The notes beneath the pieces are model-generated. The model had not been told where the DNA came from, made no database searches, and saw nothing but the letters and a program-made list of their open reading frames with translations. A stretch of DNA of 58,920 nt, counting the filler, from Dugesia japonica (Eukaryota), in the NCBI GenBank assembly GCA_001938525.1. It is 4 parts of 4 records of this genome, joined end to end, with 100 filler letters (N's around TTAATTAATTAA, not from the genome) between each part and the next. Parts side by side here need not be neighbours in the genome. Positions count along the whole stretch, not along the records: positions 1 to 17,751 come from MQRL01610743.1; 3 more parts are not named here. The stretch is one strand, 5' to 3'. Shown here piece by piece: positions 3,353 to 50,778 of this stretch; positions within the stretch are counted from its first letter, which is position 1, and every line of letters starts with the position of its first letter. The position numbers were made by a program, and so were the translations under genes.

Positions 3353-3358
3353 TTTACC
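3353..3358 (+). repeat. 6-bp target-site duplication TTTACC (left copy; right copy 16187-16192)
   Basis: Identical hexamer immediately outside both TIRs; 6 bp is the typical Polinton integrase TSD length. Confidence 0.95.
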
Positions 3359-3630
3359 AGTAATGGTATTGTGGTTAACCTTAGCCACCATCATTTTCAT
3401 AGGAAACCGCCATTTTTTCATTTTTTAAAAAAATCGAAAAATGCGCGATTTTTCATAAAATATTGAATAATAAAAAATCGAAATTTTCCGATTTTTCATA
3501 AAAAATTCGCGATTCATGATTTTACATAAACTATAAAACAATTCGCGATTAATGATTTTAAATAAAACATGAAAAATTTTTAATGAGCGATTTTAAATAA
3601 AGCATAAAAAATTCTTCAACTAAAGATTTT
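3359..3630 (+). repeat. Left terminal inverted repeat (~272 bp) with 3 units of a ~35-bp internal repeat
   Basis: Matches the reverse complement of 15742-16186 from AGTAATGG to CAACTAAAGATTTT; about 5 differences in the outer ~175 bp. Confidence 0.93.
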
Positions 3631-3656
3631 TCGCGATTAAACTATTTGTTTATAAA

Positions 3657-4791
3657 ATGGAATGTAAAAAAAATATAGTCGCACCGACACAACATTGAAT
3701 CTAAATGGTTCTGTGTGCGACACAATTTAAAAATCAATTTGCAGTTTTTTCCAATACACTAAAAACTGCACACCAGAAAAATATTTAGTCACTGAATTAT
3801 TCCTTTAGAAAATGGTAGTTAAAGAACGAGGACAAGTGCAGTATTTAATATAATAAAAACTTTGGGTATTGATGAGGATTGTGAGTTGGGTGAAATTGAA
3901 GAATATATAAAATGTGATGTTACAATGGAAGCGGCAAAAGAAAAATTAATATATCTTAATCAAATTTTTAAAGAAGCAGATGAAATGAATTTAGAAGAAG
4001 AAAATCTTAAATTATTTAAACGAGTATTAGCTTTTATATTTTTTCAAACAACAGATGGTGACTGTAAAGGACTTGCGTTAAATTTAATTAATGGAGAAAA
4101 TGAATATTTTTTAAAAATAATAGAAGAATTAAAAAGTCTTACAAAAAGAACGAGACGAGCACAACATTGCACTTGCTAAATTAAAAGAACAAACAAAACC
4201 AAGTAAAATAGAGTATAATGTTTTTAGTGTTAAATAGGAACCATAATTAAATGAAAACGGCAGAGCATATGTAAAATCAAAAGATGTTAGTATGCTTTGT
4301 AACAGGGCGAAGGAAAGAGTAAAAAAATTTGAGGTTGGTAATAAATATGTAAAACTAGAAATACCCAAAGAAATTAAAACTATAGAAACTGCTAAAGTTA
4401 AAAAANTACATTAAAAAATGTCTGATGTTTTTATTACAATGTTAAGGAATTATGATTTTGTAAGTAATTCAGTAAAAAATTTTTGTAAACTTCGCACACT
4501 AAGTGAAAAAACTATAAGAGCATATTTAAATAAGTTTAATATTCCATATAATAAAAGAATCCAAAAAACAAAACTATATAGGAAAAAAATGGAAGATCTA
4601 TGTCTTTAATAGAGAGATATGAACTTAATGAGCCTGATGTTTTTTCTATTATTGGAAAAATGAGAAAAGCGTGGATAGATGTTACAACGAGACACCTGAT
4701 GAGTGGTCTGATGAGCGACTTAATGAAACACACCACGAGCCAGCCTACGGTAAAAGCGGCAACTGTGAAAAACATGTTAAAAAATTATTAA
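3657..4791 (+). pseudogene. One or two disrupted Polinton accessory genes of unknown function
   Basis: ATG in TATAAAATGG context just inside the TIR; ORF pieces 3862-4179, 4418-4609 and 4600-4791 can be linked across frameshifts and stops; no recognisable motif. Confidence 0.5.
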
Positions 4792-4796
4792 AGAAA

Positions 4797-6055
4797 ATGG
4801 AAGTAAAAATAAATCTCGATAATAATATTATATTTACTCATAAATTATTAAAAAATGACATTTTAAAAATTTCACCAACATCTGGTTCAATAAATAATAT
4901 GTTGGGTGGTGGGGATGTAGTTTTTCAATCTTTACAATCTACGAATCCCTTGGATATTTGTAATGCAATGTTATACTTTAAAATAGAATTAGAAAACGAA
5001 GCCGATAAAACAGCAGTTTTAGAAAATAATTTTTTTCCATCTTTATTTAAAACAATGATATTAAGACTTGGGGCGTCTGATGTTGAAACTATTAATGATC
5101 CAGGCATAATATCAACAATGTTAAATTTTATTACAACAAGTTATACTCATAGACAAATATATGGACAATTATCAGGATGGATTCTAGATGATGATAAAAG
5201 AAAAATATTATATGCAAGTAAAAAATTTGGAGGCTATTTTCCATTGAGAATTTTATTTGGATTCATACAAATTTTAATAGAGTTCTTTACAATACAATGA
5301 TTGAATTTTGTTGCAATCGACAAATAGAGGATAAATTTATATTTAAAGGAGAAGGCACACCAAAATTAAAATTAACAACTCTCGAATTACACATTCCACA
5401 ATGTAGATTAACGCCTAAAATGGAATTAATGCTTTTAGAAAGAATCTCAACAGATAAACCAATTAAAGTTGCATTTTGAAATAGAATAACAGGAAAGATG
5501 ACATTTGATTCTGGAAATTATTCATCTTATAAAATAAGCAATCTTTCTTATAAACCAAGATATATTTTTATAGTGATAAAAGATGAAGATATTTCTTTTG
5601 CAAATAATAATAATTTATTTATTCAAAAAAAATCAAAAACTGTTAAAGTCGATGCAAAAGATGTAATTAAAAATTATTATTTAAAAACTATGCAAATTCA
5701 GTTAAATAATAATTACTATCCAATTAATGAATGTAAATTTTATATGGCAAAGAATGAAATGATTTTTTCCTATTTTAGTTATATAAAATGTTGTCAAGAC
5801 TTTTTCACAGAACCACAATTATCTCATCAAGAATTTGGCGAACTATATCCAATTTTCTGTTTTGATGTAACAGCCCAAGATGATAGACTAAATATATATA
5901 ATGTTGATGTTACATTACACATTACAAAGGATCCAAATTTTACTGGAAATCTTTACTGGTGCATTCTTGAGGAAAAACATATAGAAATGAAATTAGCTAA
6001 TAATAAAATTGCCATGATTGAAAATGTGCGAGGTGTTGAATTTATTAATAAATAA
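4797..6055 (+). pseudogene. Double jelly-roll major capsid protein (hexon-like), one frameshift (~5268) and one in-frame TGA (5477-5479)
   Basis: Reconstructs to ~420 aa with Polinton MCP-type motifs LENNFFPSLF, FPLRILFGF, KPRYIFIV, LNNNYYP, YPIFCFDVTAQ. ORFs 5297-5479 and 5498-6055 are in the same frame. Confidence 0.85.
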
Positions 6056-7261
6056 ATGACTAAAACAAGTAAATTTACATGTGAAAAATGCAATAGATTC
6101 CTCTTGAAAAAAAATAAAGCTAGATATGTAAAAATTTGTAAAGGAGGCGATCTTCAAAAATCAAGTTTTGTTAGTAATATTTTAAAACCAATTACTTGGG
6201 AAAAATATTCTGGTAAAAGACATTTATTCCATCACAATTACACCGGTTCAGGAACTAGATTAGAATTAGACTTGATGAAAATAATAATCCATTACCAGGA
6301 GAAGAACCAGTTAATCAAGTTGATGCAGCAGCATTGAAACATGATATGGCTTATAATTCAGAAGATCTTAAAGATCGACACATTGCGGGTGTAAATTTAA
6401 TACACGACCTAGAAAATATTAAAAATCCTACAATAGCAGAAAAATTTCAAAGAGCTCTTGTAAAAATGGCAATGAAAGGTAAAATATTAATTGGCCAAGG
6501 TATAGCAGATGAGCTTCATCGTGATTATAGAAAACCAAAACAATTATTAAAAGTAACAGTAAGTGAAGTAGATGAAACTTGGTCAGCAGATTTATCTTTT
6601 CATAATAAAAAAATAATACTAACTGTGATTGATCTTTATACAAGATTTGCTTTTGTAGAAATTTGTGAGAAAAAAACCGGCGAGGTTGTTACTGACGGAT
6701 TTGAAAGAATCCTAGAAAAAAGTAATCAAGTTCCAAATAATCTTTGGGTTGAAAGGGGAAAGGAAGTTTACAACAAAACATTTACCGCCTGGTGTAAAGA
6801 AAATAATATTAACCGTTACTCTACTTATAATCAAGGAAAGGCAGTTGCCATTGAAAGATTTAATCGTACATTTAAAAACAAACTCTTTAAACATTTTACT
6901 GCCGTTGGGAATCAAGAAATCACCCTCAAATTATTAGAGAAAACAGTAGATGATTACAACAACACCATTCATTCTTCAATAGAAACAACTCCAAAACATG
7001 CATATGAAACTGGTAATGTTTTTGAAAAAGAAACTGAGATTTTTAAAAATCAAAAATTTAAAATAAGAGATTGAGTTAGAATATTTATAATTTAAAAAAA
7101 ACACATTTGAAAAAAAATATAGATTTAAATGGAGTCCGAGGATTTTCACTATTACAAAAATTTATCCAACAAATCCACCAACCTATCAAATTATGGATGA
7201 AGATGATAAAAAAATTCTTGGGAGATTTTATGAGAGCGAGTTACAAAAAAGTTCTTTATAA
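6056..7261 (+). pseudogene. Zinc finger - phospholipase A2 - RVE (DDE) integrase fusion
   Basis: N-terminal CEKC-x12-Y-x3-C finger. After a 1-bp frameshift (~6268): HNYTGSGTRLE..EEPVNQVDAAALKHDMAY (parvovirus VP1u-type PLA2). Continues without a stop into ADELH, WSADL, LTVIDLYTRFA, LWVERGKE, IERFNRTFK, YNNTIHSSI. Tail KFKIRD*VRI...FEKKYRFKWS...GRFYESELQK ends at TAA 7259-7261. Confidence 0.88.
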
Positions 7262-7266
7262 AAAGG

Positions 7267-8022
7267 ATGAGCAGTTTAGTTTAGAAGAAAGACAAGACAA
7301 TTTTTAATAATAAACTTTTCCCTAGTAATTTTCGATTGTTGATAATTGGTTCCTCTGGTTGTGGAAAAAATGTTCTCTTGAGTCAAATGTTACTTACACC
7401 AGGTTTTCTTGATTATGACACTTTTATATTTTACTCAACTACAATTAATCAATTTGAAGTATAATTATTATATCACAGATTTTTAAATGGTTTAACAAAA
7501 CAAGAAATAATGTTAATGTTTGAGAAGCTAGCGATTGAGCCAGATTCATGTATCACTCCAACAGAGGTTATAGATTTTTTCATTCAAAAGAAATTTTTAA
7601 CAAAAAAACCACAAACAATAGAAATAATCCTAAGTAATAAAGCAAGTGATATTATTCCCTGTGATAGATTAAAAAGAAATTAAAAAAATCTTGTAATTTT
7701 TGATGATGTGGTAAATGAAAAAAATCAAGAAATTCAAAAAAGTTATTTCACTCGAGGTCGTCATTCAAATTGTAATATAATTTATATTTCACAAACATAT
7801 TATCACTTCGATAAAAATTCAATTAGAGGCAATGTAAATTGATATATATATTTTCGATTAAATAAAAAAGATCGTAATAGTGTTTATAGTGATTTATTTT
7901 CTTGTGTATTTAATGAAAAAGATGATTATGATTTTGAATTAAATTTTCATTGGAAACAACCCCATATATATATTTATTTAAAACATTTAACAAATGAAGT
8001 GACAACTGATTTATTTGCTTAA
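7267..8022 (+). pseudogene. A32/FtsK-HerA-like genome packaging ATPase with four in-frame stops (absent from ORF track)
   Basis: One frame reads FRLLIIGSSGCGKN (Walker A), NLVIFDD (Walker B), YFTRGRHSNCNIIYISQTY and IRGN. Confidence 0.92.
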
Positions 8023-8026
8023 GAAA

Positions 8027-8450
8027 ATGGAACCAAAAAATAGTAGTATAACAGAAGATGAATAATTTAAATTAATAAATTCAAATCATAGCAAATCTAT
8101 AAAAATTGATGGTAAAAATTATTGGATAGGTAAACAAGCAAAAGAAGAAATTAAAAAACATCAAAAAAGAAGGGGGGTTTTATTCCATTATTAGCTTTAA
8201 TACCTAGAATACTTAGTGGTATTGGCGCAGCCGCCGGCATAGCCAGTAAAATTGCATCTACCGTTTCAAATTCTCGTGAGGCAAATAAAAAACAAATTGA
8301 AATTGATAACCTTAATGAAGAAAGAGAAATTGAAATAGAAAATATAAACGAACAACAAGACGAAGCTATTTATAAATATTTAAAAAATCAAAAAGTAAAA
8401 CTATCAAAAGATTTAAAAAAGGGTGGGGAATATATTTAAAACCTTATTAA
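8027..8450 (+). pseudogene. Putative virion core/membrane-active protein with adenovirus pX-like motif
   Basis: Across frameshifts reads KEGGFIPLLALIPRILSGIGAAAGIASKIAS, a charged coiled-coil, then GGGIYLKPY*. Confidence 0.65.
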
Positions 8451-8451
8451 A

Positions 8452-9310
8452 ATGGATAGCGAAGCGAGACAATCAATAATAAGAAGAATTAAAGAATTAA
8501 AAGAAATAATTGCGGCTAAAGAAAAATATAATGAATATTTCTCCAGTAAAGTTCTTCAATCTAAAAACCTACTATCTTCACTTGCTTTTCAACAACAACC
8601 AACAATTTCAGCATTACAACAACAATCAAAAATTTCAGCATTACAACCAAAACTTCCAACTATGGAAATGGATACTCAAACAAAACCACAATTAAATATT
8701 CTTTTTGAAAAAAAAGAACCATATACTCCAACAGATATTGAAATGACTCCAAATATTAATAATTTAACTACAACAATAATTCCTCAATTTGATTATGAAA
8801 CTATTGGTGAAAAAATTTATATAAAAATAAAAATTAAAGTTAGAAAAATATATTTAGTTAAAGAAACTGAAATACCATATTTTTTTATACTTCCAAATAT
8901 ACTTATTCCATATTCAAACGGAGTAATGAATTTAATTTTAGGAAATATGAAAGGAACTGATGATATAAAAATAGAAGATAATAATATTTATTTATTTGGT
9001 TTAAAGATTGAACATTCTCATTTTAGTAATTATATAAAAACACTGAAAAAAAACTCCATTACCAGAGCAAAAAGTAGAACCAAAAACGCCACAAGTACAA
9101 CAACAAGTACAAATACACGGCACAACAGCACAAGGCACTGGAATTAATCTAATAGATTTATTTGAAAAATTAATAGTTTTAATTTCAGCTAAAAAAGTGG
9201 GTCATGAAAATACTAGTTCTGAAATAAAATCAGTCTGTGGAAAATTAAGAGCGAGGAAATTAATTTCAAATGAGAAATATAAAATTTATCAAAAAAAATA
9301 CTTTAAATAA
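8452..9310 (+). pseudogene. Conserved Polinton putative core protein (coiled-coil N-terminus, helical C-terminal domain), frameshift at poly-A ~9050
   Basis: ORF 8452-9147 shifts into PLPEQK...AQGTGINLIDLFEKLIVLISAKKVGHENTSSEIKSVCGKLRARKLI..*. This resembles the L-x2-L-x4-(A)G-x5-EI-x6-L C-terminal motif I recognise from beta-type adintovirus genomes. Confidence 0.6.
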
Positions 9311-9985
9311 ATGTCTCATCAGTTTTTAATTACTGGTAAAGGATCAAAATTAGAAGTAAATTTAAAACGCCCATTAGAGTTGAATGGAGAACACGAACTT
9401 TGTTTAATTTGCTTTTCCGTTTATAATATCATTTTTAATATAGAAAAGGAAGATTTTAATTTTATATTTGAAGGAAAAGAAGAAAAAATTCATCCCGGCG
9501 CTTATGAGGTTGATGAAATTTCAGAGAAAATAAAAGATTTAGGAATAGAGATAACTGCAGACAAATCAACCAGTAAATCTTTACTTATTATTCCAGAAAA
9601 GAAGACTTTAAAATTTGATGAAAAATCTTTCATTTTTAAACTTTTAGGTTTTAAACCCGGTGAGTATGCTTCTGGAAAATATTACTCAAATGAAAAAATT
9701 AACATTTCTGATATAAATATGATTAACATTACTTGTAATATAGTTAAAGGAAATTATATAAACAACAAAACAACTAATTTCTTATATTCATTTCCAACAA
9801 ATACTGTAAGCTTTGGATATAAAATTGTTGAAAGACCATCACCACCTATTTACTCGAGAATATCTTCTAGTTATATTGATGGCCTAAGATTTGAAGTTGT
9901 TGATGAAAATTTTAAACTTATTGATTTTAATAATGAAACTGTGTCATTATTAGTTCATTTAAGAAAATGTCCGCAGAAATCTTGA
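9311..9985 (+). CDS. Minor capsid protein (penton-like, single jelly-roll), intact ORF
   Basis: 224 aa; PLEL, PGAYEVDEI, LLGF, INITCNIVKGNYIN, LYSFP, GYKIVERP, VVDENFKLIDFNNE and terminal VHLRK are typical of Polinton pentons. Confidence 0.9.
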   Translation: MSHQFLITGKGSKLEVNLKRPLELNGEHELCLICFSVYNIIFNIEKEDFNFIFEGKEEKIHPGAYEVDEISEKIKDLGIEITADKSTSKSLLIIPEKKTLKFDEKSFIFKLLGFKPGEYASGKYYSNEKINISDINMINITCNIVKGNYINNKTTNFLYSFPTNTVSFGYKIVERPSPPIYSRISSSYIDGLRFEVVDENFKLIDFNNETVSLLVHLRKCPQKS

Positions 9986-10383
9986 ATTTTCTAAAAACAT
10001 TTGAAATTACTACAACTACAAATTTCGATCTTTATTCTATTGCTGACTTTTTAAAAATACCATTGGAAATTTACAAGAAAAATGAGTTGCCTTCTCATTT
10101 TGAAAATAATATTTTAAATTATGAAAATACAAATCAAAATGGCTCTCATTGGGTTGCTTTAAAGAATAAACATTATTTTGACTCTTTTGGTTTAAAAACA
10201 TTTCATGAAGATCTTGAAAAGCACGTAGAAAAATTTAATGAAATTCAAGTTCAACCTTTTGAAACAAGAATTTGTGGAGTACTTTGTATTTATTTTTTGT
10301 ATAGCTTTCCAGAAAAATCTTTTGATGATATTATTTCTGAAATAAATGAACATGTTTGGAAAAAGCTTACAGGCGAGGAATGA
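9967..10383 (+). CDS. Adenain-like cysteine maturation protease, intact ORF
   Basis: 138 aa with GSHWVA (His), YFDSFG (Asp), QVQ (oxyanion Gln) and ICGVLCIYFL (Cys). Confidence 0.93.
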   Translation: MSAEILNFLKTFEITTTTNFDLYSIADFLKIPLEIYKKNELPSHFENNILNYENTNQNGSHWVALKNKHYFDSFGLKTFHEDLEKHVEKFNEIQVQPFETRICGVLCIYFLYSFPEKSFDDIISEINEHVWKKLTGEE

Positions 10384-10393
10384 TAAAAGAATT

Positions 10394-11379
10394 ATGAATA
10401 GTCTTTATCCTAAATTAAGAATACATGATGCAAGTAATGAAAAAAGATTTGTAAATGAATCTGGCGACACTGTTAAATTTCTAAAAAATTATTGATAATC
10501 CTAAAGATGAATTGGATGCAGTAAATTTAAAATTTCTCGAAAGTAAATTAAAAACTTTAAAAATTCCTAATGACCCTAAAGATGAACATGATCCAGTAAA
10601 TTTAAAATATATAAATAAAATCAAACAAGAAATTGTTGCCTTTAATTTCCAGATTTTCAAACAATTAAAAGATGAACTTGATGCCATTAAAAGACAAAAA
10701 GAAATTGATTTTCTTAGAGAGTTAAAAATTATTGGCGACCCAAATAATAAACACAATCCACTTAAATTAAAACGAGAATTTAATCTTCTAATTTCTTTAG
10801 ACAAAAAGAACATCTTAACCCAGAATATGAAAAAAAAATTAATGAAAAATTAGAAATATAAATAAAAAAAATAAGTCTACAACGGTGTTGGAAAATTTAA
10901 ATGAATTAATTGAAAATTATTTACTATGAAATGATATTGAATTAGAAGAATATGTATTTTTTAAAATGTTTTTTTCCGTAGGTATGAAAATGAATTTCCT
11001 TATTATTCCGAGAATAAAATTTATGCATGCTTGGAAAAAGTAATAATAAATGGACGTTGGGAACAACCTAATGTTGAAAAACTATTTTTTTTCCTTGGAG
11101 TCCTTTAAAACTTTATTTTAAAGCTAAAACAGAAGTTGGTCCAATATGTATTTTTATTTCTGGATATACAAAAACACCTAAAATTAGTATTACTATTAGT
11201 TTTATTGGTTCTGATGAGATTGTAGATTTTAATTTAAAAAAACGGGAGAATTTAAATTGGAAATAAACACCTTAAATTTTAAATATGGAAAAACTGGGCA
11301 AAGTAGTGATATAAGAAATATTTTAACTGATAAAAGATCTGAGTGGTTATTGAATAGAATAGAAAGTGTAAAAATATAA
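10394..11379 (+). pseudogene. Putative fibre/spike-like protein, disrupted
   Basis: FVNESGDT followed by repeated P-x-D-x2-D-(A/P)-VNLK-(F/Y) units (NPKDELDAVNLKF, DPKDEHDPVNLKY, degenerate DPNNKHNPLKLK), coiled-coil segments and a beta-rich tail; located right after the protease. Confidence 0.5.
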
Positions 11380-11479
11380 ATTTTTTATTTGATTTTACCA
11401 GCAAATATTTATATTAATAACCTTGTACTTGTCTTGAAGATCATACAAAAATAATATTTGAAAATTTACCATAATAAAA

Positions 11480-12021
11480 ATGGCAGAAGAATCCTTGAAT
11501 CCAGATTTAAAAAATTATCGTGAGGAAATAAATAATTATACACTTGAAGATCTAAAATCAAAATTGTCATCTCTAAGAATTAAAGATTTTGAAAATTACT
11601 TATATTTTATAAATGATAAAATAAAACACTATCGAAAATTTTATAGTAAATAGGACAAATTTTATTTGGAACCGGCGTTGCCATTGTAGGTGTAATTTTT
11701 GCAACTCCACTTGGTCTTGGTATTACTACAATAGGTCTTCCTATAATAACTGGAATAGGATCTGTAATTCCAATTACTGGCGCTTTAAATTCATCACTAA
11801 TTCAAAAGAAGAAAAAGAAGTATGCAAATCTTATTGTAAAATTAGAGGCCGTAAAAAATAAACTTTTCCTATTTCAACAAAAGGCCTTAAATGTTAATAT
11901 TTTAACAGATGATGAAATTTCTACAAGTAAGACAATGATTCGGGAAGTTTAAGAAATAATTTTAAAATCAAAAGATCAAAATCCGGATTACCAAAATTTA
12001 TTAAAAGATTTTAAAGTTTAA
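11480..12021 (+). pseudogene. Two-transmembrane-helix protein with basic and helical C-terminal region
   Basis: MAEESLNPDL... then, after a frameshift, ILFGTGVAIVGVIFATPLGLGITTIGLPIITGIGSVIPITGAL, KKKKKY, KALNVNILTDDEI; the 3' end overlaps the PolB stop. Confidence 0.6.
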
Positions 12022-15000
12022 CCTGTGGGGCCATGTCCTAATACCATTATCCTCAATTAAAATTTTGTCATCATAGGCAGTCATTGCTATTTTATGTTGA
12101 GAAACTAATTCTACTTCATGACCTCGTGATTGCAAACTATAATTCACTCCATAAACTACTTCCTTGGGGTTCGCTAAAATTTTATCATACTCTTCCATTT
12201 TTATCTTATTTGCCTTAGCTGTGCCCTTGTGTTTTGCATTAAAATTTATATTTCTATCTAATGTCTCATAATTAACTCCATAACATTTCGAGCTTATAAA
12301 ATTACATTGTGTAATTTCACTATTAGGCATTTCATCTTTCATTTGAAAGAGTTCGTTTCCTAATAGTGTTTTAAACTTGTCCAAATTTTCTTGCCCCCTA
12401 ATTTCCACAAAGAGGGAATCTGTATCTGTATAGTGAATTTTTTACTTTTCTATTCCAATTAATGGTTCCATCTTTTTATATACAAAATTATACATAACTT
12501 CTTTTGCGTATTCTAAAATAGTAAAACCAATGTATGGAAATTTATTATATTTGAAAGTTGCCTGCTGCATGTGCATTGCTGCTGAAGTTGGAGAAAAAGT
12601 TTTTGAAGATTTGTAAGTTAGTTTCGAAGCAAACCTTTGAAATTCTTTATTAGTTCCTACAATTTCCACATTACAACGATTCCTAATATTTTCTAGGGTT
12701 TTACCATAAAAGGAATTATTTGCCATTTTAAAAATATGGTCCCCATTTTCATCACCATTTCGTTTCGCCTCATTTCTCTTCTCAACATTAAAAAGAATAT
12801 ATGGTCTTAACCACGGCCTTGTTGGCACTTTATATTTACAATGAATTTTTTTAACTTCATTCCAAGTTCCAAATATAAATCCAATGTTCTTCCAAGAATT
12901 ATGTAATTTTCTTTGTTAAATTGATTTAATGTTAATTTAACATTATCCTTTGAAAGTTGTTTATAAAATGCCTTTTGATATGGTGCTAGCATCTCCTCTC
13001 TAATATTTGTCCTCTCGTAGATCTCTGGAGGATATTCCAAATCAACCTCATAGAGGAAATTATAGTTGTCGGTTGATTTTTCGTATTCTAAATCCTCACA
13101 TTCTGTGAAATCACCTGTTGGAAGAGGTTTTGTCGTACAGGCGGAATATAAGGAATTTTGATCGATATATTTTATAAAAGTCTCTTCAATATATTTTTGA
13201 AGAATTTCTTCATTAGAATTTAAGATTGTTATTAAATCCTCAAAATCCGCCCTATTTAATTGCCTTGTGTGTGGGTCTTTCTTTGGATTGTAGCTAAAGA
13301 CTTGTCTCTCAGCAGTTACTGCTGATACTCCTCCACGGCTTCCTCCTTCATTTTTTAAAAAGTAATTGTATGTTTCTTCCTTTGCATATTTTAACCAAAC
13401 AACTGTAAATTTAATTCCAGCTATCCATGTAAGTCCTGGCTATGAGCAACAGTAACATGGATCGATTTCATAATATTCTATAGAAAGTTCACGAAAACTT
13501 TTGAAAAATTCCGCAAGAATTAAAACGTCGATTTTCATATAGTGAAGTGTATATTCCCACATATTTTTAAATGAAAAAAAGTCTATTAAAAAATTCTTAT
13601 ATTCTATGTCGGTTATGTATTTTGTTTTAGTTCGCTATGAAAATCGTCTGCTGTGGGAATTTTATTGCTTTTTAATAATTTTATTACCTCTTGTGTGTTT
13701 GAACCTTTTACATTTTCATAAGGAAATGATATTTTTTTGCTTTAAGATTGAAAGATTTTAAATGTGGATATTTGCCGGTTTTATTTAATTTTTCACCCAT
13801 TCCCTCAATCGATATCAGTGGGCACATTCTGCATGAATCAAGGAATCTAATTCTTTTAAATCTAAAAGAAATATATTCCTCATCATTGTGTGGTATAATT
13901 CCTTTAATATCATTTGGGTGTTTTTCTTTAAGTTCTCGGAAAAATAAGTGATTATCATAACCAGCCGCATTATGAAAGTTAAATGGTATAAACAAATTTG
14001 TCTTAATATTTTTATATTTAAAGTTACAAAACTCATGTGCGCCGCATATGAATTCTCCATTAAAAAAGTTATAGACCTCTTCTATATTTTCCCATAGTGT
14101 TTTTTTACAGTAAAAACATTCATTTTTTAAAATTCTAGGTTGTTGCTTAATTGTAAGTAATGATTTTATTTCTATTATCTCATTTATTTTTTCATTTAAC
14201 TCTTCTAAAAATTTTATAAAATCATTTATCACGTTTTCACTAGAAAATACCTTATACTCTGTTTGAATTAAATCTTCGTGTTTGCTTGCAAGATAAACTC
14301 CAAGGGCGATTGGTTTTTGTTTTTTACTGAATGTGTTGGTGTATGCTTCAAAATCTCCATAAACCACGAAAGGAGCTTTAATCATAAAATTATAATCCCT
14401 AAATGAAAAATATTCCTTTGTCTCAAATTTAATTTCCCGGGGGTCATAATGAGCACACTCCCTTTGATGTCTTTTAAATAATACTTCGCTTTGATAAGCA
14501 TTCATAAAATTTACACACAAATGTTTTTTATGTGCCACACTAATAAATCCATTTAAATTTTTACACAAAATATAATGGCCCTGATAAATTAATAAATTAC
14601 ATTTATTTTCTTCTTGTGGTGGGCGGGGATCATAATAAGAAATATGAATTGGTTGTAATGATTTATCATTTTTTATAATTTTCAACTCTAAGACGTTAAT
14701 CTTCCAATTGTTTAATCTTTCAAATAGTTCTACATCATCAATCTTTGCTGGAAAATTAACCCCAGTTAAATTAAATTCATGAATGTGGGGTATATAATTA
14801 TTTTGTCTTGTTGGATGATCATAAGTGTATTTATGTGCTAAAAATGAATAGAGAAAACATTTATCATCATCATTTTTTATGTTAACAACTCCCCATTTAA
14901 TAAATGGTAACTGCACATATGTGGCACTCACCAATGATTTATAATATTCAAGAGTAAATGTAAAATTTATTATGAAGTCAAGAGACCACCCACTCTCACT

Positions 15001-15650
15001 CCTTTCCTGATCGGATAAATATTTATCTATTTCACTAATTAAACTCCCCACAGAATTTTTAATTTGAGATGCAATTGTTATTCTTATATTTTTTGCATAA
15101 AACCTGAAAGTTCTTGTTGTTTCCACATAATTTACAATTTTACTATATTTCCCTAATGCAGAAAGACGAATAAGTATTTACCACCTTAAATTAAAGAACT
15201 TTACTGTGTAAAAAATAATTTGTCTAAATCCCGTTTCAGAAATGTCTTTGGTAAACTCGATTTTGCTATTTCTAAAATATTCTATTTTATATTCTCGATA
15301 TTTTTCAATATTAAAAAACGTGGTAATTTCTATCATCTCTTGCGTTCTTTCTGGTTTTGGTAATTGCCTTCTATGCGCGTTGCCCGCGTAATGTGCTTTT
15401 GCTATACCTTGATTTGAAAATGTTAAATGACAAATTTCACATTTCAAACTTTCATTATCTGGGTTCCAACATAATGATGAAATTTTATGTTTTTGTAGAT
15501 GGATTTTTGTTTTAAATCCTTCACCGCACTTCTCAAACGGGAAAAAACTATTGGTGTTTTACATACAAATAAATTTCTGTGGGTTGTAAGACCCGAACGA
15601 TTTTTAATAACTGCTCCACAATACTGACACTTGAATATTTCCACTGCCAT
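12001..15650 (-). pseudogene. polB: Protein-primed family B DNA polymerase (~1215 codons) with three N-terminal zinc fingers, multiply disrupted
   Basis: ExoI VYGDFEA, ExoII FHNAAGYDNH, ExoIII HYMKID; polymerase motifs YIDQNSLY (~13150-13170), KMANNSFYGKT and YTDTDSL (~12413-12433). ORFs 15178-15447 and 13708-15126 share a frame separated by one TAA. Confidence 0.95.
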
Positions 15651-15741
15651 TTTATAAAGATAAACTTTAATCATATTTTTAAAATCATGGCTTAAAATTT
15701 TCTGGGTGTGAGGGGTGCCTCTTAAAGCGGAATTTTTATTT

Positions 15742-16186
15742 AAAATCTTTAGTTGTAGAATTTTTCATGTTTTATTTAAAATCGCTCATTAAAAATTTTT
15801 TATGCTTTATGTAAAATCGCTCATTAAAAATTTTTTATACTTTATGTAAAATCGCTCATTTTAAATTTTTCATGTTTTATTTAAAATCGCTCATTAAAAA
15901 TTTTTCATGTTTTATTTAAAATCATTAATCACGAATTTTTTATAATTTATGTAAAATCACTCATTTTAAATTTTTTATGTTTTGTTTAAAATCGCTCATT
16001 AAAAATTTTTTTATAGTTTATGTAAAATCATGAATCGCGAATTTTTTTGAAAAATCGGAAAATTTCGATTTTTTATTATTCAATATTTTATGAAAAATCG
16101 CGAATTTTTCGATTTTTTTAAAAAATGAAAAATGGCGGTTTCCTATGAAAATGATGGTGGTTAAGGTTAACCATAATACCATTACT
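15742..16186 (-). repeat. Right terminal inverted repeat (~445 bp) with 8 units of the ~35-bp internal repeat
   Basis: Unit consensus (minus strand) AATGAGCGATTTTA(A/C)ATAAAACAT(G/A)AAAAATTTTT, tandemly repeated over about 15760-16030. Confidence 0.93.
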
Positions 16187-17751
16187 TTTACCTTTTTACG
16201 CAACGCAAACAATTTAAAAAGAATATAAATTATATTGTGATTGCAGTTTTAAACTTAAAAATATTTAAACTACAAATGAATTTCAAGAAAGATTAATGAA
16301 CGCAATAAATTAATGCTAAATACAGTATCAAATGAAATTAAATTGTACGGATTGGAAAATCATTTAATTTATAAAATTACTGAAGAAAAAAGTCAATTCC
16401 TGAAGAAGACTAAGTCGAATTGTTATCAAATATCAATAAAAAAAACAAAACATTTGATCGAAGCTTTTATTTTAAATGAATTCTGTAAAACGATCAATGG
16501 TTATGTTCAACAATAATTCTCGCAATAATTGTAATTGGAAAACCATTCATTCAGAATTGTAAATTGAAAATTCAATTTAAAAATATTTAATATTATTATA
16601 CACTGAGGAAGCAAATTTGTTATTTGATTTGCGTATAACGTGGTACAGACTGTTTAAAATTTTTATGGAAAAAGTTTCAACTTCAAGATAACAAAGTATT
16701 TGAGACTAAATCCCGACAGTGATGGTTATATTTCTTGGAGAGAATTTATAGCAGATGGCATCATTTATATTCCAAGACTAAGCATTCTTTTCTCTTCTCG
16801 TAAATGCAGCATTTTTAATCACCAGTAACAATGTGAGGCAAAAAAGCTCACTATTGCTGACGAGCTAGTGATGAAACGTAAATATCGACACTCTTATTTT
16901 TATTGATTTTAGTCAAAGCTCGCAGCACATATACACCAATTTTTGAACTTTCCCATGGATTTTAAAAGTCAATTAGTTCTAATCCACCACAATGGCCAAT
17001 TTCCGAGTTGTTTGGCGTGAATTTTAATGAATTAAGAAGGCCGTATAATCATCATCAAGGATTCATTGTCTTCAAGAACGCTGAGTATAGTTTATATCAA
17101 AATGACCTGCTTTGAAACGTGAAAATTATTTTTCTGCTGTACTTTTTACAATTGCATTCTTTCCAACAAACTGCACAAATGGTTCTTTTAGTTTCAGCAG
17201 GATTTGTTGAATTCAAATAATAATATGTCATTAAGATAACTTTAACATTTGCCTAAAAATACTCTTTTTTAAAAACATTGTTGCTTTTTAAAGAAATTCT
17301 ACTATCTTATGCATCAACACAATTCTATAAAGTTACCAATATCATACTGTGATCGCAAAATAATAATATTAAACTATTATAATGAGAGAAAAAAACAAGA
17401 CGAAATGTCTCGGTTTTTTATTAAACTTGTTTAACGTTATTCATTGTAAAAGGTAGAAATAGAAAATTAATTTTAAGTAGTAATGCCAAAATGATTTTTA
17501 GTTGGGTAGATATTTTTCTATTAAAATTCCCAAGAGGAGTTTGTAAGTCGACAGCAAAAATTACTGAAATTGTCTCCATTATTTGCTCAAAAGACACAGT
17601 ACCCCATAATGCCAAAATATTGTCTAAGAAAAAATTTGCAGAAACATTTTTATTTTAATTAAAATGCCATGTTGTCACTCATCAAATAAATGTAAGGTCT
17701 TTAAATGAAATATTTCTTCGCATATTTGTTCTTCTGATGAAAATACATTAC

Positions 17752-17851: not shown

Positions 17852-18420
17852 TTGAAAATAAAAAGAACCAATGAGAAATTTATAACTGCAGAAAGATCAA
17901 GAAACCGATATAATCGAGTACATGCAATTCAAGATGAAGATTTCAGTACAAACGATGGATATGAGGAAGTATATTAAAGTGATTCCAAAAGGCACTACCC
18001 AAAAGGCAGGGCTCCACCAGTAGAAGAGTTGGTTGGAGACATCCATTGTTAAATGAAGTGAGTAATTATCCTCAAGGAGTCGAAAAGTGGCATGATATAG
18101 GAAAAGTTAAAGAAAAAGTATACAGGTTCTTAAAGAGAGAAAATTTTGCGGATGATATAAAAGTTGAATGGGTTGGAGCAGTTGAAGCAGAAAGGAAAAC
18201 AAATATTTTGTACCTGAAAGTGCAATGCAGACCACGTGTTACAATCTCAATTCAAGGAAATAAAGTCGAATGTCTATTAGATACAGTGGCTCGAATTAAC
18301 GTGATGAGTTTGAGTTATTTTAATAAATTACGAGAAGTAAATTTACAAATGAATGATGAAAGATTGCGTTGTGCAAATCATAGTTTACTTTAAATTGTTG
18401 GGAAGTTAGAACTGGAGTGA
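17852..18420 (+). mobile_element. Gypsy gag end / aspartic protease fragment
   Basis: VECLLDTVARINVMS (degenerate DTGA motif), LRCAN. Confidence 0.7.
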
Positions 18421-21400
18421 TAATTGATGAAGTTGATGGATATTGCAGCGTAGAACTAAAACCCTAAATGTCAAATTCTTAAATAAATAACGAAATTTCT
18501 GAATGGTATATTCATCGTTGGTCTGTTCAACAAATTATCCTAACCCTTAAGGGGTTGTAATTCTTCCAATAATTATAATGATCAATAAAAATTGTCACTA
18601 AATAATGACGAAAGAAATAATTATTAAAAATACCACGACCATAGTAATCACACGGTAAGCCTTGAAGCAATATGATATTATAAACATATCGAAGGCATTC
18701 CGGGGGTAATATTAATAGAAGTAAAAGGATAAGTCCTAAAGTAGTGTTGATTTTCCAGTGATAAAACAGGATAGGCAATTTTCTGAAAGCTAAAATCATT
18801 AAAACCCGTATTACTGTAATGTGACGGAGAATTGCATAGAGCCACTGTCAATAACTATTTGATCCGTAATAATGTTAAAATGATAGCGGTAAAGATATGG
18901 GAACACTTAGTTTAGTCTTATTAATCATGAAGACGACCATTAAAGCTGGTATGGATTACGATTGTAATAAACAGGGTGAGAAGTTTATTGCGATGTCATA
19001 ACGTTACTAATACTAACCATAATAAGGGTAGTGATGATGTTAATGATATAATGTTGACACCTTTAATATAATAAAATTAATAGTAAGAATATAATAATAA
19101 TTCTAATAACAGAATAACAACAAAATGACCACAATATAAAAATAATTTCACAATTAAAAGATTANNNNNNNNNNNNNNNNNNNNNATTCCGCTGGCGTCA
19201 CAAAAAAATCATCTCTTTTATTACGATATTGTTAATCCTACTAATAGCGATCTACATAATGTGGTAAACCATTGCGTTTAGCATCAAGGAATAAATATGA
19301 GATATTTAATCCTTTATAGATAGAACAAACATTACTACCCATAAGGATAATAATTCGTGTGCAATAAAACACAGAAATAATATCATTAACATTTACATTT
19401 TGGAACCTAGTGATGTCTGCAAGAGTAGATTTGAGATGTTTCGGATAGGATTTCAATTACCTCATCTTAATTCCAATTTACGCTTTATCTAAGAATGTCT
19501 GATAGAATGATCATCATAAAAATATACAAAACAAGACTGATCTCCAAATTAATAGCAAGATTTGATCCCAGTATTGAGATTGTTGGATGAATTTAATAGA
19601 GACAAGGCAAGTGTGAGTTGCATATAATACATTCAAAAAGGGTTATTCACTCTTGTTGTGTTGGCAGTTTGTGATTCAGCGCAACACACATACTAGTTTG
19701 TTTTTCTGGCTTAATATACTGAGTAAAATTAGAACACGATCTGGTACCACTGAATTATCATGTGAATTAGAGATATTTTAAGAAAAACATAATAAGTAAT
19801 CTTTTTCCGCTAAGCATGTGCATTTATGTTTGCCGAATTTAAGTCTGATCTGAGTAGTTCGTTATTCACCAGATATTAATTGCTTTAGATAAATGTATAG
19901 ACTTAGTTAACAGTTTAAATAATTAGTGAATAATAACACAAATAAATATTAGGATAAAGATTTTATTTAGCAATTATTAATTTATAATATGATTATTATT
20001 GAATTATGGCAACTCTTAACATATTCATTGATAAAATCATAGTTAATAATTTGTTCAACATACATAATGAACACTACTTACTGTTATAATTTAAGATTCT
20101 GCAAGGGATTTTTCTAATGATAAATGTAGATTTGAATGTGAATAACGGCTTCTGATTCCTTTTAAATGAAATTAAATTTTCTGCTAAATGACGGTAATTT
20201 TACTTTGAACTCTTTTGCTTTTCCAGTCAACGTGATGATATTTCTTGAAATTAGTCGAAGTTACTGTAATTTGTTGTTTTGTAGACATTTATACTGAATT
20301 CAAAAATATAAAATACAGTTTTGCATCAAAATTTGATAGAACCCTAAAATGATCTAGGTTAATTATGTTTTATCTTTGAATTAACTGGAAAATAATTAAT
20401 AATAAATCGCATTAAAAATATTCTAGGAATATTTCAACGCAAAAGAAAAGTCAATCAGAATATCTATAAATAATTTTGATTATGATTATGATTATAATAA
20501 ATTTATTAAAATTAAAACAATTAAATTACGAAATAAGTATTAGATTAAATAATTTTTATTGAGATATCTTACAAATAAATAAATTTCCAACATTTGCTTG
20601 TAAATAGTTAGATCATAAACATAACATTTTACGTGAATAATTATGAATTTATATGAGAATTCATGAAACAATATATAAATGAATTTCATTGTAAATTCCG
20701 TTGATCTGCATCAACTTTCCAAATTTAATGTTCGCACTATAATATGCCAAAAAGCCATTGTTTTCAACTGATGGCATCTTATTTGAATTAAAATACGGAT
20801 ACATGTCTGGTATTTTATCGTATATTACGATACCACCATAATCAGAGTTACAATCGTTCATATTTTTCAAAATATGAAATGACCTCAAATCCACACCTTG
20901 ATTGCCTTGTTTACTAAATTAATCAAATTTTTCTGCAAGAATTCCATGGAAATGATCCTATTAAATTTGTCTGGTTAAACCATTCATCATACCCTTGTTG
21001 TCAACTAGAAATGAAAGCCAAGCAACAATTTCATCATTAAAATTTCTAATTGTTAAATTGATCATGATTGATCGAATTGTATTCCATTCATTTAACAAAA
21101 CACTTTTAAAATTATCAGTAAAATTTTGATTCATAAATTTTTTATTTGATTTGTATCAATTATAGAATTGTTGTAATTATCTTTCGACGTGTAGTTTTGC
21201 AACGAATTTATAAGACTACAACTAACAATTCTAAATAAAATAACATTTGGTGATTCTTTTCTGAACAGCTTGCTGATGTTTTTATTTGCGTAATTTATGG
21301 TTGATGTAGCAAATTGGCAGGAATCATTAACCATAAAGAAACAATCAGTGTTCATTAGCCTTTACATAGAAGAGCAATTTAATATTTAAAACATAAATTT

Positions 21401-21999: not shown

Positions 22000-24760
22000 A
22001 AATTTGTCCACATTTCTCTTCAATTTCTGTCTATTTTATCCTTGTACTGCATACTGTATTTCGTGAATTTTCTACATTATTCGATTATAACCTGCTTTGA
22101 TAAAACTGATTTGATTTCCTGTTTCTATCTTGATGAGGACATAATCTCCTAATTCTCCATTAGTAGTCACTTCTGAAATATTTTCTTTAGTTTTATCTGA
22201 GACATCTAACTCGTACCCATTTTCGATGCTAAATATCTTTCCAAATACGATTTCAGTCGGGTTTTTTCCAGATATTTTTTACTTTGTCGCATTAATCGTA
22301 AATTCTTTTTCCAGTAATAATTTTGCCCAAGCTGTTGTCTTTTTCTCTTGAAATACTTCATTAATTAAATCTAAAATTGTCCTAAACTGTCTTTCAATTT
22401 AGCCATTTGCACTGTGATAAAATGACTTGAAAAAGCAACGTTTAATATCTAACTTCTGTGCGAAATCTCTTATAACTTTCGATTGAAAGTCTTTTTTACA
22501 ATGAAATATTTTCTTTCTTGGATATCCAAATCTAAAATTTAACTACTCAAAAATAACTTTTTTTTATTGTTTTCTAGTTTTGTCTAAGCAATTCTATGTA
22601 AACCAGATATTTATTGAAATATTCTTCTATTCAAAGAATGTATTTTTCCGTATTGGCCCACATATACTCGTGAATATGACTTCAAACAAACTGGTAGCTT
22701 CTAATCTATTTGTACTCATTTTAGTTACGGGATTCAGGTTACGTTAGTTTTATTAATTGTCATAACGCTTAAATTGATGTTTAACAAGTGAAGTTTGGTA
22801 ATCTAATATAATTTTTACTTTTGGATTCTTTTATTTATTCCGAATATTTAATATAAATAAATATTCTGGTAAAACTATGATTAACTAAGATTAAAATAGA
22901 AAATATTATAACATTTCATAAATGACCAATACAANNNNNNNNNNNNNNNNNNNNNNNNNNNNNNNNNNNNNNNNNNNNNNNNNNNNNNNNNNNNNNNNNN
23001 NNNNNNNNNNNNNNNNNNNNNNNNNNNNNNNNNNNNNNNNNNNNNNNNNNNNNNNNNNNNNNNNNNNNNCAGCTCCATTCTGAAGATCTGGATTTTTGGG
23101 GACACCAGATTAAATTCTTGGCGGGGTTTTAGTAGGCCAATCATCCTAGACAAATTAATTAAAAAATTTCCCCACTTAGATAAAACCTCAACACATGTCT
23201 AGAATTACTACGTAATTGGTTTTTTTGTCATCATCATGAAACCTAGAGCGTTAGCTGTGTCCTAAGATTAAATTTTCTACCGTAAAAATAATTGTTTGAA
23301 ATGCATGCAGCAATAACTCTTTTCGTATTGTACAGTATACCTTTTCATGACGTGTCATTGAAATTAATCAATAGGCAAGAACTCTTTTTTTTCTTTATCT
23401 CTCTAATTTAAAACTGTTCCAATTTTATCAAAACATAGAGTCAGTATTTAATATAATTTCTCTATTTATACCTTTAAAACACAATTTTGGCGGAGTTATT
23501 AGAGGTTTTCTTCAGACCCTTAAAAGTATCGTTTATTTCATCTGTCCATTCTAACTTTCTACAAAACGTTTCTAAAATCATGAATTTCTTGTCTAGTTTT
23601 CTATAAACTTCTGTAGTAATTGCGAATCCTATCTTAACGCAGTTAGGTTTGTTAAATATTCTTATTGCTTTAATTTTATATCCATCAGTTATTACACCAT
23701 CCATGCTAATTATGTCACCAAAATATTTGATTTTGATTTGAAAAACCTGACATTCTTCTAGATTAATTCATAAAACAGCATTCATTATTTCAGTCAATAC
23801 TCTATCAATTACTTCATCATGTTGAATGTCATCAATATATACTACGGCACAATTAATTCTGACAAACACTACTTTCATCGTCTCCTAAAATACACTCGGT
23901 GTGGCTGCTATGTTAAATGGCATTTCATTAAAACAATATTCTTCGTGTTTCAAAGTAAAAATCTATTTTCTGTGATTTGTCTACAAAGCTCTAACTGATA
24001 GTAAACATTTCCCAAAGTTATGAAATGAAATATTTTTCTCCATCTAACTTATTTAGCATTTCATCAATATTATGCATCGGAAAGGCGTGTCTTTTTGTCA
24101 CTGCATTTAATTGTTTGAAATCTAAACATATTCATATTTCCTTTTTTCCTTTTTCCAAACAGAAATCAGTTTAGTATTACACGAAGAGTTGCATTTCCGG
24201 ATAATAAGTTTTTCCAAAAGTTATTGGATAGCTTCATCAATATCCGCGTCTTAGTTTATTGGTTACCGGTACGGTTTTACATTGATAGGTTCATCAATTT
24301 TGATTACTTTGTGTTTTGTAAGATGTCGCCATCCTATATCATATCTATAAGTCATGAAAACATCTTTTTTATTTTCAATTAATTTCAATAACAGTTGTTA
24401 CTCTTTACTCTTCAAACTATACAAAGGTCTTTTCACTCACTTTATCTTTTTACTTTGTCCCTACAATTCTGCTTCAATTATGCAAATGTGATTTTTAACT
24501 TTTTCATCCATTTTACAATCAAATTTCGTACAAACTGGTATCCAATGATTTTCTATCTATCTATTCTTCCAATCAGATATGATGTCGCTCTTTCTGCAAC
24601 TAAAAATGTAACCTCTTTTCAAACGTCATTATTTGTCACCCCAGTTCTAACTTTCCTAACCATATCTAGTGTACTATCGCTTGCACAACTCAATCATTTG
24701 TCGCTCATTTCTAAATGCATTTCTTGTATTATATTAAACAACTCTAACTAATAACGTTGA
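22000..24760 (-). mobile_element. Gypsy pol remnant (protease end, RT, RNase H, integrase)
   Basis: CLDFKQLNAVT..AFPM (~24080-24130), VYIDD (~23830-23845), RNase H remnants at 23200-23460, YHSANG*IERQFRTI integrase motif (~22380-22420). Confidence 0.8.
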
Positions 24761-24899
24761 TTCGAGTTTATGTATCTAAAAGACATTCAACTTTATATCC
24801 TTAAAATTATACATTAACACTTGGTCTTTCTTATAATTCATGTTACGAAATATATGTAACCTGTTCTGCTTCAATTACTCCAATCTATTATATTTTTTA

Positions 24900-26720
24900 T
24901 CCTCCCAAAAAGTTTCTTCTTTAAGAACCTATAAACATTTTCTTTAACTTTTCCGATATCATACATACTATTTGACCCAATGGTATAAGAACCATATATT
25001 TACTGTACTGGTCGATTATCAGAAGAATGTATTTTTTCGTCCACTTGTTTCCCGCATTGACCCACATATATCTGTGAATATCACTTCAAATAAATTGATA
25101 GCTTCTAAACTCTTTGTCTTCTCTTTAGTTGACGTTGTCACTACTTTGGTCTTCTGAAAAATTTCACAACTACGAACTATCTTCTGTATTTGGCTGCACA
25201 AATTCTTTGCAGTATATTTGTTTCTTATATATTCGTACACCTTTTCAAGCCCTAAATGATCTAATAATTTATGTATTTCTTCTATTGTTTCATGTAGTTT
25301 TTTCATCCAGAATTTTCATTTTCTTGATCAAACCTGTTTCCTCAGAAAAGTTTTAATGATCTTATTTTTCCTTTTCAATTATGTTCAATATTTTCGTTTT
25401 AATCGTCCCTTTCTTGGCATCTTTATGTGACATTTGACACTGTACACATAATTCACATCTTGGTCTAGAAAACATATCTCCATTAGCATGTTGAATTCCT
25501 TTTCTATATTCCTAAACGATGTCTAAATTGCTCAGATAATTAATCCATGTTTGGAATTGCGACGTAATTGAATTCTTTGTCGTCATCATGAAAGATAGAG
25601 CTGTGTGATCTGTTCTAAGAGTAAATCTTCTACCGTACAAGTAATGTTTGAAATGCATACCAAAATAATACACAGCCAATAACTCTTTTTATGTAATGCA
25701 GGATTCCTTTTTCATGACTTGTTATTGAGTGTGATCTATAGGCAACAACTCTTTCTCTTCCTGATATATCTTTCTGTGATAATACTGCTCCGATTGTATC
25801 AAACTGGAATCTGTATCTAATATAAATTCTTTGTTTATGTCCGGAAAACACAATATTGGTGTAGTCATTAGAGATTATTTCAGACCCTCAAAAGTATCAT
25901 TTATTTCATTTGCCCATTCTAATTTGTTGTTGCTTGGTCCACTACACAACTGCTTTAGTATATTTTATTTTCTTGCGTAGTTTTCTATCAAACCTCTGTA
26001 ATAATTACAAATTCTAAAGAAACTTTGTAACTTCTTCAAAGAATGTTCTTATAGCTTCTATTTTAGCCGGATCAGTTCTAACACCATCTCTGCTAATTAT
26101 GTGTCCAAGAAACTTGATTTCGCTTTGAAAAAATTGACACTTTTCTTGATTAATTCTTAGACCAGCTTTCATTATTTCTGTCAATACTCTTTTAATTAAT
26201 TCATAACGTTGATCTTTATTGTTCGTAAATATCAGGATGTCATCAAGATAAACCATGGCTCCATTGATTCCGCCTATCACTTTTGTCATCATCTCTTGAA
26301 ATGTTTCTGGTGCCACTGCGATGCCAAATGGCATTCTATTAAAACAATATTTTATATGTCTCGTTGAAAACGCTGTTTTTTCTTGACATTCTTTTTCAAT
26401 CTTTACCTGATAGTATGCATTTCATTAATCTAATGAACTGAAATCTAACTCCATCTAACTTGTCCAGCATTTCATCGACATTAGGCATAAAAAAGCTAGT
26501 TTTTTCGTCCTGTAGAAAACAAGACTTTCATCCAAATAAATTACACACTAAATCTAATTCATTAGTTTTTGGAAATATGCAGATGTCCAGCATAATCCGA
26601 AAGGCAATCTGTTAAACTCAAATTGTGCTAAAAGCAGTTTTCGGAATATCTTCTTCAATTATTAAGACGTGTTAATACCTACTTGACAAATCTAGACTTG
26701 TGAAATACATTGAAGACTTA
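24900..26720 (-). mobile_element. Second Gypsy pol remnant (RT with YLDD, RNase H, integrase N-terminus) plus an extra RT fragment
   Basis: MPFGIAVAPETFQ..VYLDDILI..KC..IKFLGH (26014-26334); IGAVLSQ; RTDH; integrase HKLLDHLG..VRSCEIFQ..DICG (25019-25306). Confidence 0.9.
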
Positions 26721-50395: not shown

Positions 50396-50504
50396 TAATA
50401 TCAGTAATTAATATTTGATAACATTGTTTAATGACGAATGAGCAATAATCATGAGCTTATATACACTTTTTGTATACTCTTTTATATACTCTTTGTGATA
50501 ATAA

Positions 50505-50778
50505 TCGGAGTGATGAAGTTTTTAAAATCTAAAAAATCAACACCAGGCAGTCACCAGTCATGTATGTAATCAGTGATGAAGATGAAAATATTATTCAAGG
50601 AAACTTTTATGAGCAGAAATTGCAAGTGTTGCTAGAAAAACCAAGTATATATCGAATCAAATCAATTCTCAAAACGAAAGGCCGAGGACAATATAAACAA
50701 TATCTTGTTGATTGGCATGGGTATTCAAAACCAATGCAGATTCGAGCATCTCAAATACAAGAATTAGTTTTTATATGA
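50505..50778 (+). pseudogene. Polinton integrase C-terminus with chromodomain
   Basis: SDEVFKI..PVMYVISDEDENIIQGNFYEQKLQ..YRIKSILKTKGRG..QYLVDWHGY. Confidence 0.85.

Follow-up and report, generated by a model that had tools for sequence, protein, structure and literature searches.

The window analysed here is a 58,920-nt stretch of Dugesia japonica DNA, in which positions 3359-16186 (12.8 kb) are occupied by a complete but decayed Polinton/adintovirus with most of its genes broken (Table 1). The Polinton/Maverick features present are a DNA polymerase B, an rve integrase, and inverted repeats with AG...CT ends and a 6-bp duplication; such ends together with a 6-bp target duplication are a hallmark of Polintons. 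A double jelly-roll capsid protein, a penton, an A32 ATPase and a cysteine protease are also present, with matches in the window that are weak alone, and the assignments lean on intact relatives. The L006 capsid protein itself matched DJR-like_dom at E 5e-24, and the L010 polymerase itself matched DNA_pol_B_2 at E 3.6e-22. The pX/Macc-like gene was named by eye, from its likeness to the pX part of L044-L051, and is the part carried behind phospholipase A2 (PLA2) in canonical PLA2X proteins. No second PLA2 gene was found in the window. Two small C2H2 zinc-finger frames (15178-15764, minus strand) lie between the polymerase and the right inverted repeat, and GG/GxG motifs, which are expected of a processed particle module, also occur in the capsid, pX and penton genes (4905-4916, 8173-8226, 8422 and 9335).

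Table 1. Features of the Polinton/adintovirus element, in window positions
Feature	Positions	Strand	Remarks
Left target-site duplication	3353..3358	.	6 bp, same bases as 16187-16192
Left terminal inverted repeat	3359..3630	+	5'-AG start; 90% identity to right repeat over 272 bp
Major capsid protein gene (double jelly roll), in pieces	4638..6055	+	weak DJR-like matches; tblastn with L006 capsid E 1e-47 to 1e-59
Leader: degenerate U1-type C2H2 finger	6056..6148	+	ends in GG motif (6143-6148)
Parvovirus-type PLA2 domain	6149..6492	+	frame break ~6264-6268; substitutions in Ca-loop and at 6388
Border motif LIGQG	6487..6501	+	predicted cleavage site of the element's protease
rve integrase	6502..7261	+	core in frame to stop 7072-7074; tail in broken frames; 6751 substituted; no chromodomain
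A32-like packaging ATPase, in pieces	7270..7950 (ends approximate)	+
Stand-alone pX/Macc-like gene, in pieces	7996..8440 (ends approximate)	+	KKGG then FIPLL
Penton / minor capsid protein	9311..9985	+	28% identity, E 2e-18 to L045 counterpart; name from position in L045 element
Adenain-like cysteine protease	9967..10383	+	His, Asp, Gln and Cys motifs present; Peptidase_C5 E 0.015
Protein-primed DNA polymerase B, in pieces	12001..15177	-	tblastn with L010 polymerase E 2e-82
Right terminal inverted repeat	15918..16186	-	CT-3' end
Right target-site duplication	16187..16192	.

PLA2 and the rve integrase lie in a single stop-free frame of 271 codons (6259-7074), in which both Pfam profiles scored above their cut-offs: Phospholip_A2_4 with 25.3 bits (cut-off 23.9) and rve with 36.2 bits (cut-off 32.6). 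The motif DAAALKHDMAY is in this frame, with D at 6322 and LKHD at 6334. The upstream part, from the ATG at 6056, is in a different frame and is split off by the break in the PLA2 domain, and the integrase tail (7075-7261) is split off by the stop codon and by a further break at about 7090. The sequence-only reading had described one uninterrupted frame with the PLA2 motif and the integrase core, a frame break close to 6268, the motifs CKGGD (6137-6151) and LIGQG, and substitutions of the second Asp in PLA2 (6388) and in the integrase DDE triad (6751), and all of these were borne out; the copy is decayed, and sister copies are without the main break. ADELH, which was said to follow LIGQG immediately, is present but starts at 6505, one residue later.

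Thousands of short contigs from two DNA runs of the same organism map to the region. At the break near 6264, the depth differing in length from the window was 5066/6130 in one run and 4747/5498 in the other, and at the two substituted catalytic codons nearly all of the depth differed from the window. Since the sister sequence differs at both the break and the substituted codons, the damage is largely private to the window copy. Among the matches listed (16 of about 18,000), no contig piece from the organism's own DNA runs spanned the PLA2-integrase border. Two raw RNA runs gave 112 and 25 records on the region, nearly all partial and less than 90% alike.

Domains, leader and chromodomain of the fused protein

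The model of the PLA2 domain (pLDDT 85) matched rice secreted PLA2 best (Z 7.9, rmsd 3.1 over 90 residues), and bee venom PLA2 gave Z 5.1. This comparison bears out the PLA2 fold that had been proposed for the N-terminal part, with a match between modelled and known folds that is modest on its own. Parvovirus VP1 PLA2 domains appeared throughout the list of viral structures, none of them under E 0.001, and a sequence search of the PDB with the PLA2 profile returned only weak matches to AAV VP1 (best E 0.035). The features of PF08398, namely the Ca-loop, the His-Asp dyad, the second acid and the PLA2 fold, are found in the family, and the window copy is broken and substituted. In the full-length model, the integrase core matched foamy virus integrase best. 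The model of P0003 showed separate domains with a low-confidence joint (pTM 0.48) and no confident interdomain contact, and the first Gly of the border is modelled as the end of the last PLA2 helix.

The leader had been read as a C2HC-like finger, and this did not hold: relatives have C2H2 (U1-like) or C4 (DUF5679) fingers. The pattern C-x2-C...H...H was seen in eleven aligned relatives, and zf-U1 matched two of the seven relatives scanned with E ~6e-4, under the Pfam cut-off. A profile scan found no finger match in the window leader, where the His pair is lost. The leader is a degenerate U1-type C2H2 finger that is optional in the family. In an alignment of 104 proteins its length ranged from 1 to 95 residues, with one read-through outlier of 182, and it was made up of C2H2 fingers, C4 fingers, other peptides or nearly nothing. 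GG or GxG stood ahead of PLA2 in 79 of the 95 rows that filled the column, and the proteins with the shortest leaders had their Met start 1-4 residues from the point that cleavage would expose. In the leader of P0140, QKGG is repeated five times, which gives a series of candidate cleavage sites.

No Chromo match was found in P0001-P0009, and the window frame ends at 7261 without a chromodomain. One is present in the fused proteins P0258, P0269, P0278, P0302 and L040, the last with one frame break in the first integrase helix. The proposed distinction from the other Polinton of the window, that the integrase is without a chromodomain here, stands in part: the domain is absent in the window clade, but some fused forms keep it, and the match in the second Polinton is weak (50533-50775, E 0.037). 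That second fragment (50509-50775) is an integrase tail and adjoins a Ty3/gypsy-like reverse transcriptase piece (50041-50415); a further frame of the second Polinton, judged by eye to be possibly penton-like, lies at 46038-46409. LTR-retrotransposon-like pieces, partly repeated inside the window, were seen at 17983-18434 and 23194-26488.

Breadth of the fusion among relatives

The first search returned nine proteins spanning both domains, with 37-50% identity. Searches with the PLA2 part gave 54 and 201 matches, of which 54 and 120 were listed, and the 104-protein set consists of the matches listed minus 29 Lottia gigantea gene models; its rows were picked for likeness to the fused PLA2 and show conservation, not frequency. 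The first integrase Asp was present in 101 of the 104, which thus read on from PLA2 into integrase. The His, Asp and Tyr of PLA2 were kept in 102 and its second acid in all 104, and the second Asp and the Glu of the integrase were kept in 96 (5 gaps) and 88 (15 gaps), respectively. The fusion is inherited and widespread, a real architecture with both active sites kept rather than a mutation specific to this copy.

One-frame fusions were found in about 100 clusters at 90% identity and in 35 at 50%. PLA2 accompanied the integrase in 37 of the best 150 clusters at 50% identity (of 3,011 at E 1e-30), with a query that included PLA2 and favoured PLA2-bearing clusters. P0252 combines the same PLA2 with an integrase that is very different. 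Most integrases of Polintons have no fusion partner (113 of the 156 on the integrase tree, where the 'free' rows include truncated proteins). At metagenome loci (52, mostly short) the fused gene sits among capsid, pX, protease, ATPase and PolB genes. A full-length profile run against viral contigs gave 57 candidates, none of which was confirmed. The named relatives came from a limpet and an acoel worm data set.

Two proteins are labelled PLA2-integrase in the available part of supplementary file 2 of PMC11071296 (Buck et al. 2024 preprint), 2 of 59 PLA2 labels; they belong to Adintovirus nemertoderma6405 (BK066529) and Adintovirus sediment15303 (BK066759). Both records resemble the window in domain order, in the GG ahead of PLA2, in the GxG at the border and in having no chromodomain, whereas they are intact and without the finger leader. 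Adinto6405 further encodes adenain, ATPase, penton, hexon and PolB, and its Macc (pX) gene stands alone. Besides an OTU-like domain at the PolB N-terminus and an animal host, the adintovirus definition of PMC11071296 asks for an integrase with a C-terminal chromodomain, which neither the element here nor the authors' own Adinto6405 has. PLA2 does not appear in the main text of that paper, its adintovirus section is silent on the fusion, and neither a processing model nor the prevalence of the fusion was found in the parts available. The fusion is likewise not described in the accessible portions of PMC5803895, PMC3671162, PMC7805220, PMC11296320, PMC11161782 and three preprints. No published discussion of it was found in a literature search that was thin on subscription papers, Repbase and supplements. 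The architecture is therefore already annotated, twice, but not widely.

It is very improbable that the fusion arose by accident in this copy or through faulty gene calling, or that a free integrase is produced through an internal start or splicing. The window copy is riddled with breaks, and the 29 Lottia gigantea models join PLA2 to other frames, as would be seen with accidents or faulty gene calls. The two published genomes carry the fusion, however, and the one-frame clusters refute accident or artefact as a general account. An internal start at the border was rejected as a general rule, as just 29 of 103 proteins have a Met anywhere from the border to the first integrase helix, and so was a splice signal, since the Gly codons differ and no fixed signal was seen in 20 loci; neither explains the border motif. 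In the Lottia gigantea models (P0142-P0164 and others), PLA2 passes exactly at the border into fibre-like or other frames, and in P0143 and P0153 the reading continues into the first helix of the integrase. These models are probably mis-spliced models of fused elements; real alternative splicing may also be involved.

Glycine joints and other fusion layouts

The border Gly was present in all 104 proteins, with GxG only in 74, GG only in 13, both in 5 and neither in 12. The border thus carries GG or GxG in 92 of 104, sequences that match the virophage-type cuts GG↓X or GX↓G. LIGQG is the sole GG/GxG motif in the 271-residue frame, and the background in integrase cores was 1.4% per 8 residues. 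On the PLA2 tree (107 rows; FastTree, few columns), GG and GxG were swapped at least 6 times, and the border motif was lost or regained in 9 steps. The Gly codons varied freely among the 20 loci, which places the constraint on the protein, and the linker from the motif to the first integrase Asp was 32-102 residues long. The earlier claim that the domain borders fall on Gly motifs was right, and these are conserved and of the kind cut by clan CE viral proteases.

Substrates of the adenovirus protease follow (M/I/L)-x-G-G↓x or (M/I/L)-x-G-x↓G, with P4 relaxed to N/Q (PMC4246237, available part). The LIGQG of the window fits this consensus, as the sequence-only reading had proposed, but its P4 rule does not extend to the family: P4 was M/I/L or the relaxed N/Q in just 12 of the 104 relatives, and it was Lys in 60. 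The protease of mavirus acts at GG↓X and GX↓G but spares two GxG sites, and mavirus particles contain an rve integrase and a cleaved lipase (PMC6048507, available part). By analogy, mavirus would be a closer processing model than the adenovirus rule.

The second Gly was missing in three of the four proteins that end in PLA2 (L041, P0309 and P0365) and kept in P0227. By our own reading of the distant clusters, it was also absent in 7 of 35 N-terminal fusions; one of these, P0302, stands for a cluster of 58 members. L041:9800-10372 is a stand-alone C4 finger-PLA2 gene that stops three residues past the border Gly. No protease gene was found in the parts of the L040 and L041 contigs covered, which are not the whole contigs (13 kb in L041, where there was also no integrase).

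In canonical PLA2X (L044, L045, L047 and L049-L051), PLA2 ends in the same GxG border motif. The order at these IMG/VR loci is PLA2-GxG, a basic stretch, GG and then pX, with a gene of its own for the integrase. pX stands alone in the window and in L004, whereas L005 has it in frame with the protease, not with PLA2; L005:2182-3513 (minus strand) is one open frame through the pX-like and protease genes, and similar joins are labelled in the supplement of PMC11071296. The simplest reading of these gene orders is that the integrase took the pX slot behind PLA2 and inherited the processing site. As the motif is already present in ordinary PLA2X, it would have been inherited rather than invented for the integrase, and it is a weaker proof of selection on the integrase. 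Joints other than the N-terminal PLA2-integrase one are stronger evidence than the border motif.

Two such layouts were found. P0309 and P0365 have the order integrase-chromodomain-PLA2, joined by GDG and GKG; they are sister rows and were counted as one event, and the reversed order indicates an origin separate from that of the N-terminal fusion. P0270, P0310 and P0340 (clusters of 3, 70 and 49 members) are protease-integrase(-chromodomain) proteins in one frame, joined by GGG, GAG and GKG, and their protease part matched Polinton proteases with blastp E 3.5e-7 to 2e-23. On the tree, P0310 and P0340 adjoin the fusions with N-terminal PLA2, which looks like an exchange of the front partner with retention of the joint; the protease-integrase fusions possibly are self-processing precursors. 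P0340 also has an N-terminal C2H2 finger. The available part of the PMC11071296 supplement held no protease-integrase or integrase-PLA2 label. On a careful tree of 32 rows the N-terminal fusion took 3 changes, and the AU test did not reject a single origin (p 0.078). On the integrase tree, fused and free proteins are interspersed, with at least 7 changes forced by starred branches, a count that truncated 'free' rows inflate.

As a wider and tentative proposal, with a chance we place a little short of even, Polintons repeatedly got the integrase packaged by joining it, in nearly every case via GG or GxG, to a partner that is itself packaged and processed by the protease: to PLA2 in front in many lineages, to PLA2 behind in one, and to the protease in one or two.

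Predicted processing and packaging of the integrase

The inherited fusion, the conserved catalytic sets, the GG/GxG joints, the protease gene and the separate pX gene together make a packaged precursor the best reading, to which we give a probability of roughly 0.6. Integrase and parvovirus-type PLA2 would be made by the element as a single protein, and the PLA2 module would bring the integrase into the capsid. Once inside the particle, the precursor would be cut by the element's own protease at the GG/GxG joints, a step that would remove the variable leader and free PLA2 as an entry lipase for membrane penetration. The freed integrase could then insert the incoming genome as soon as the particle has entered, with no need for newly expressed genes, much as retroviruses achieve with Gag-Pol. 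Against this reading stand the 12 of 104 proteins and the 7 of 35 distant N-terminal fusions without the second Gly, the two uncut GxG sites of mavirus, the border motif of canonical PLA2X, which suggests that inheritance or structure may maintain it, and the fact that most integrases are free.

The fusion could instead work uncut, as a bifunctional protein, packaged or not, whose PLA2 acts while tied to the integrase-DNA complex (e.g. at the endosome or nuclear envelope) and whose Gly motif is an inherited helix end. This is unlikely. The motif is ancestral in PLA2X, its first Gly coincides with the modelled end of the last PLA2 helix, the second Gly is absent in those 12 proteins and in the P0302 family, and parvovirus VP1 keeps its PLA2 tethered (PMC4642659, available part). 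However, a single Gly would suffice to cap a helix, with no call for a second one in either of two places; joints of this type are also found at borders other than PLA2 helix ends (protease-integrase and chromodomain-PLA2); and the second Gly is mostly missing where no domain follows.

We regard it as quite unlikely that the protein is cut for the sake of co-expression, not packaging, with compact genomes fusing neighbouring genes and fusions surviving where a protease site separates the parts in the cell. The intermixing of fused and free integrases on the tree would fit, as would the shuffling of PLA2, protease and integrase genes, with PLA2X-Adenain, Adenain-PLA2 and Adintoc3-PLA2X among the labels in the available part of the PMC11071296 supplement. 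But all of the integrase fusion partners found are predicted particle proteins, the adenovirus protease acts mainly inside particles (PMC4246237, available part), and mavirus packages its integrase (PMC6048507, available part). The packaged precursor, cut inside the particle, is the reading preferred here.

In retroviral Gag-Pol, the integrase is part of a precursor and is released by the element's own protease. The fused protein resembles this arrangement in that the integrase would be part of a precursor, and its modelled core fold is closest to foamy virus integrase. In contrast, this is a DNA element with a cysteine protease and a lipase partner, and there is no capsid protein, reverse transcriptase or frameshift in the arrangement; the likeness is one of analogy, not membership.

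Packaged lipases have been proposed (PMC4642659, available part). Mavirus (Born et al. 2018, PMC6048507) has an rve integrase (MV02) and a lipase (MV13) in its particle, and a protease (MVP) that cuts at GG↓X and GX↓G. Unlike here, mavirus encodes the integrase and the lipase separately, its lipase belongs to the alpha/beta hydrolases, and the available part of that paper reports no precursor for the integrase. The PLA2X of Alpha adintoviruses is a separate gene with a proposed role in entry (Starrett et al. 2021, PMC8502044, available part). It shares with the protein described here the parvovirus-like PLA2 and the terminal GxG, but in PLA2X a pX-like domain follows PLA2, with the integrase encoded separately (on the opposite strand in L045 and L049-L051), whereas here the integrase follows PLA2 and pX stands alone.

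As far as searched, the breadth of the fusion, the reverse-order and protease-integrase fusions and a testable processing rule are new; the architecture had been annotated twice, and no analysis of it was found. Fused proteins are misnamed by annotation pipelines as transposases, hypothetical proteins or, in Lottia, spliced host genes. The fusions would define the specificity of the Polinton protease as a hydrophobic P3, Gly at P2, Gly at P1 or P1' and a free P4, and they offer a direct and cheap test system in which one protein and one protease are combined with two predicted cut sites. According to the available part of a 2026 preprint, no particles have been seen for Maverick-Polintons, and a packaged precursor would explain how their integrase is delivered to a new genome. 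If the wider proposal of repeated fusion to packaged partners is true, these fusions would be a DNA-virus counterpart of Gag-Pol, and they would provide sequence-level evidence for animal Polinton particles that integrate straight after entry.
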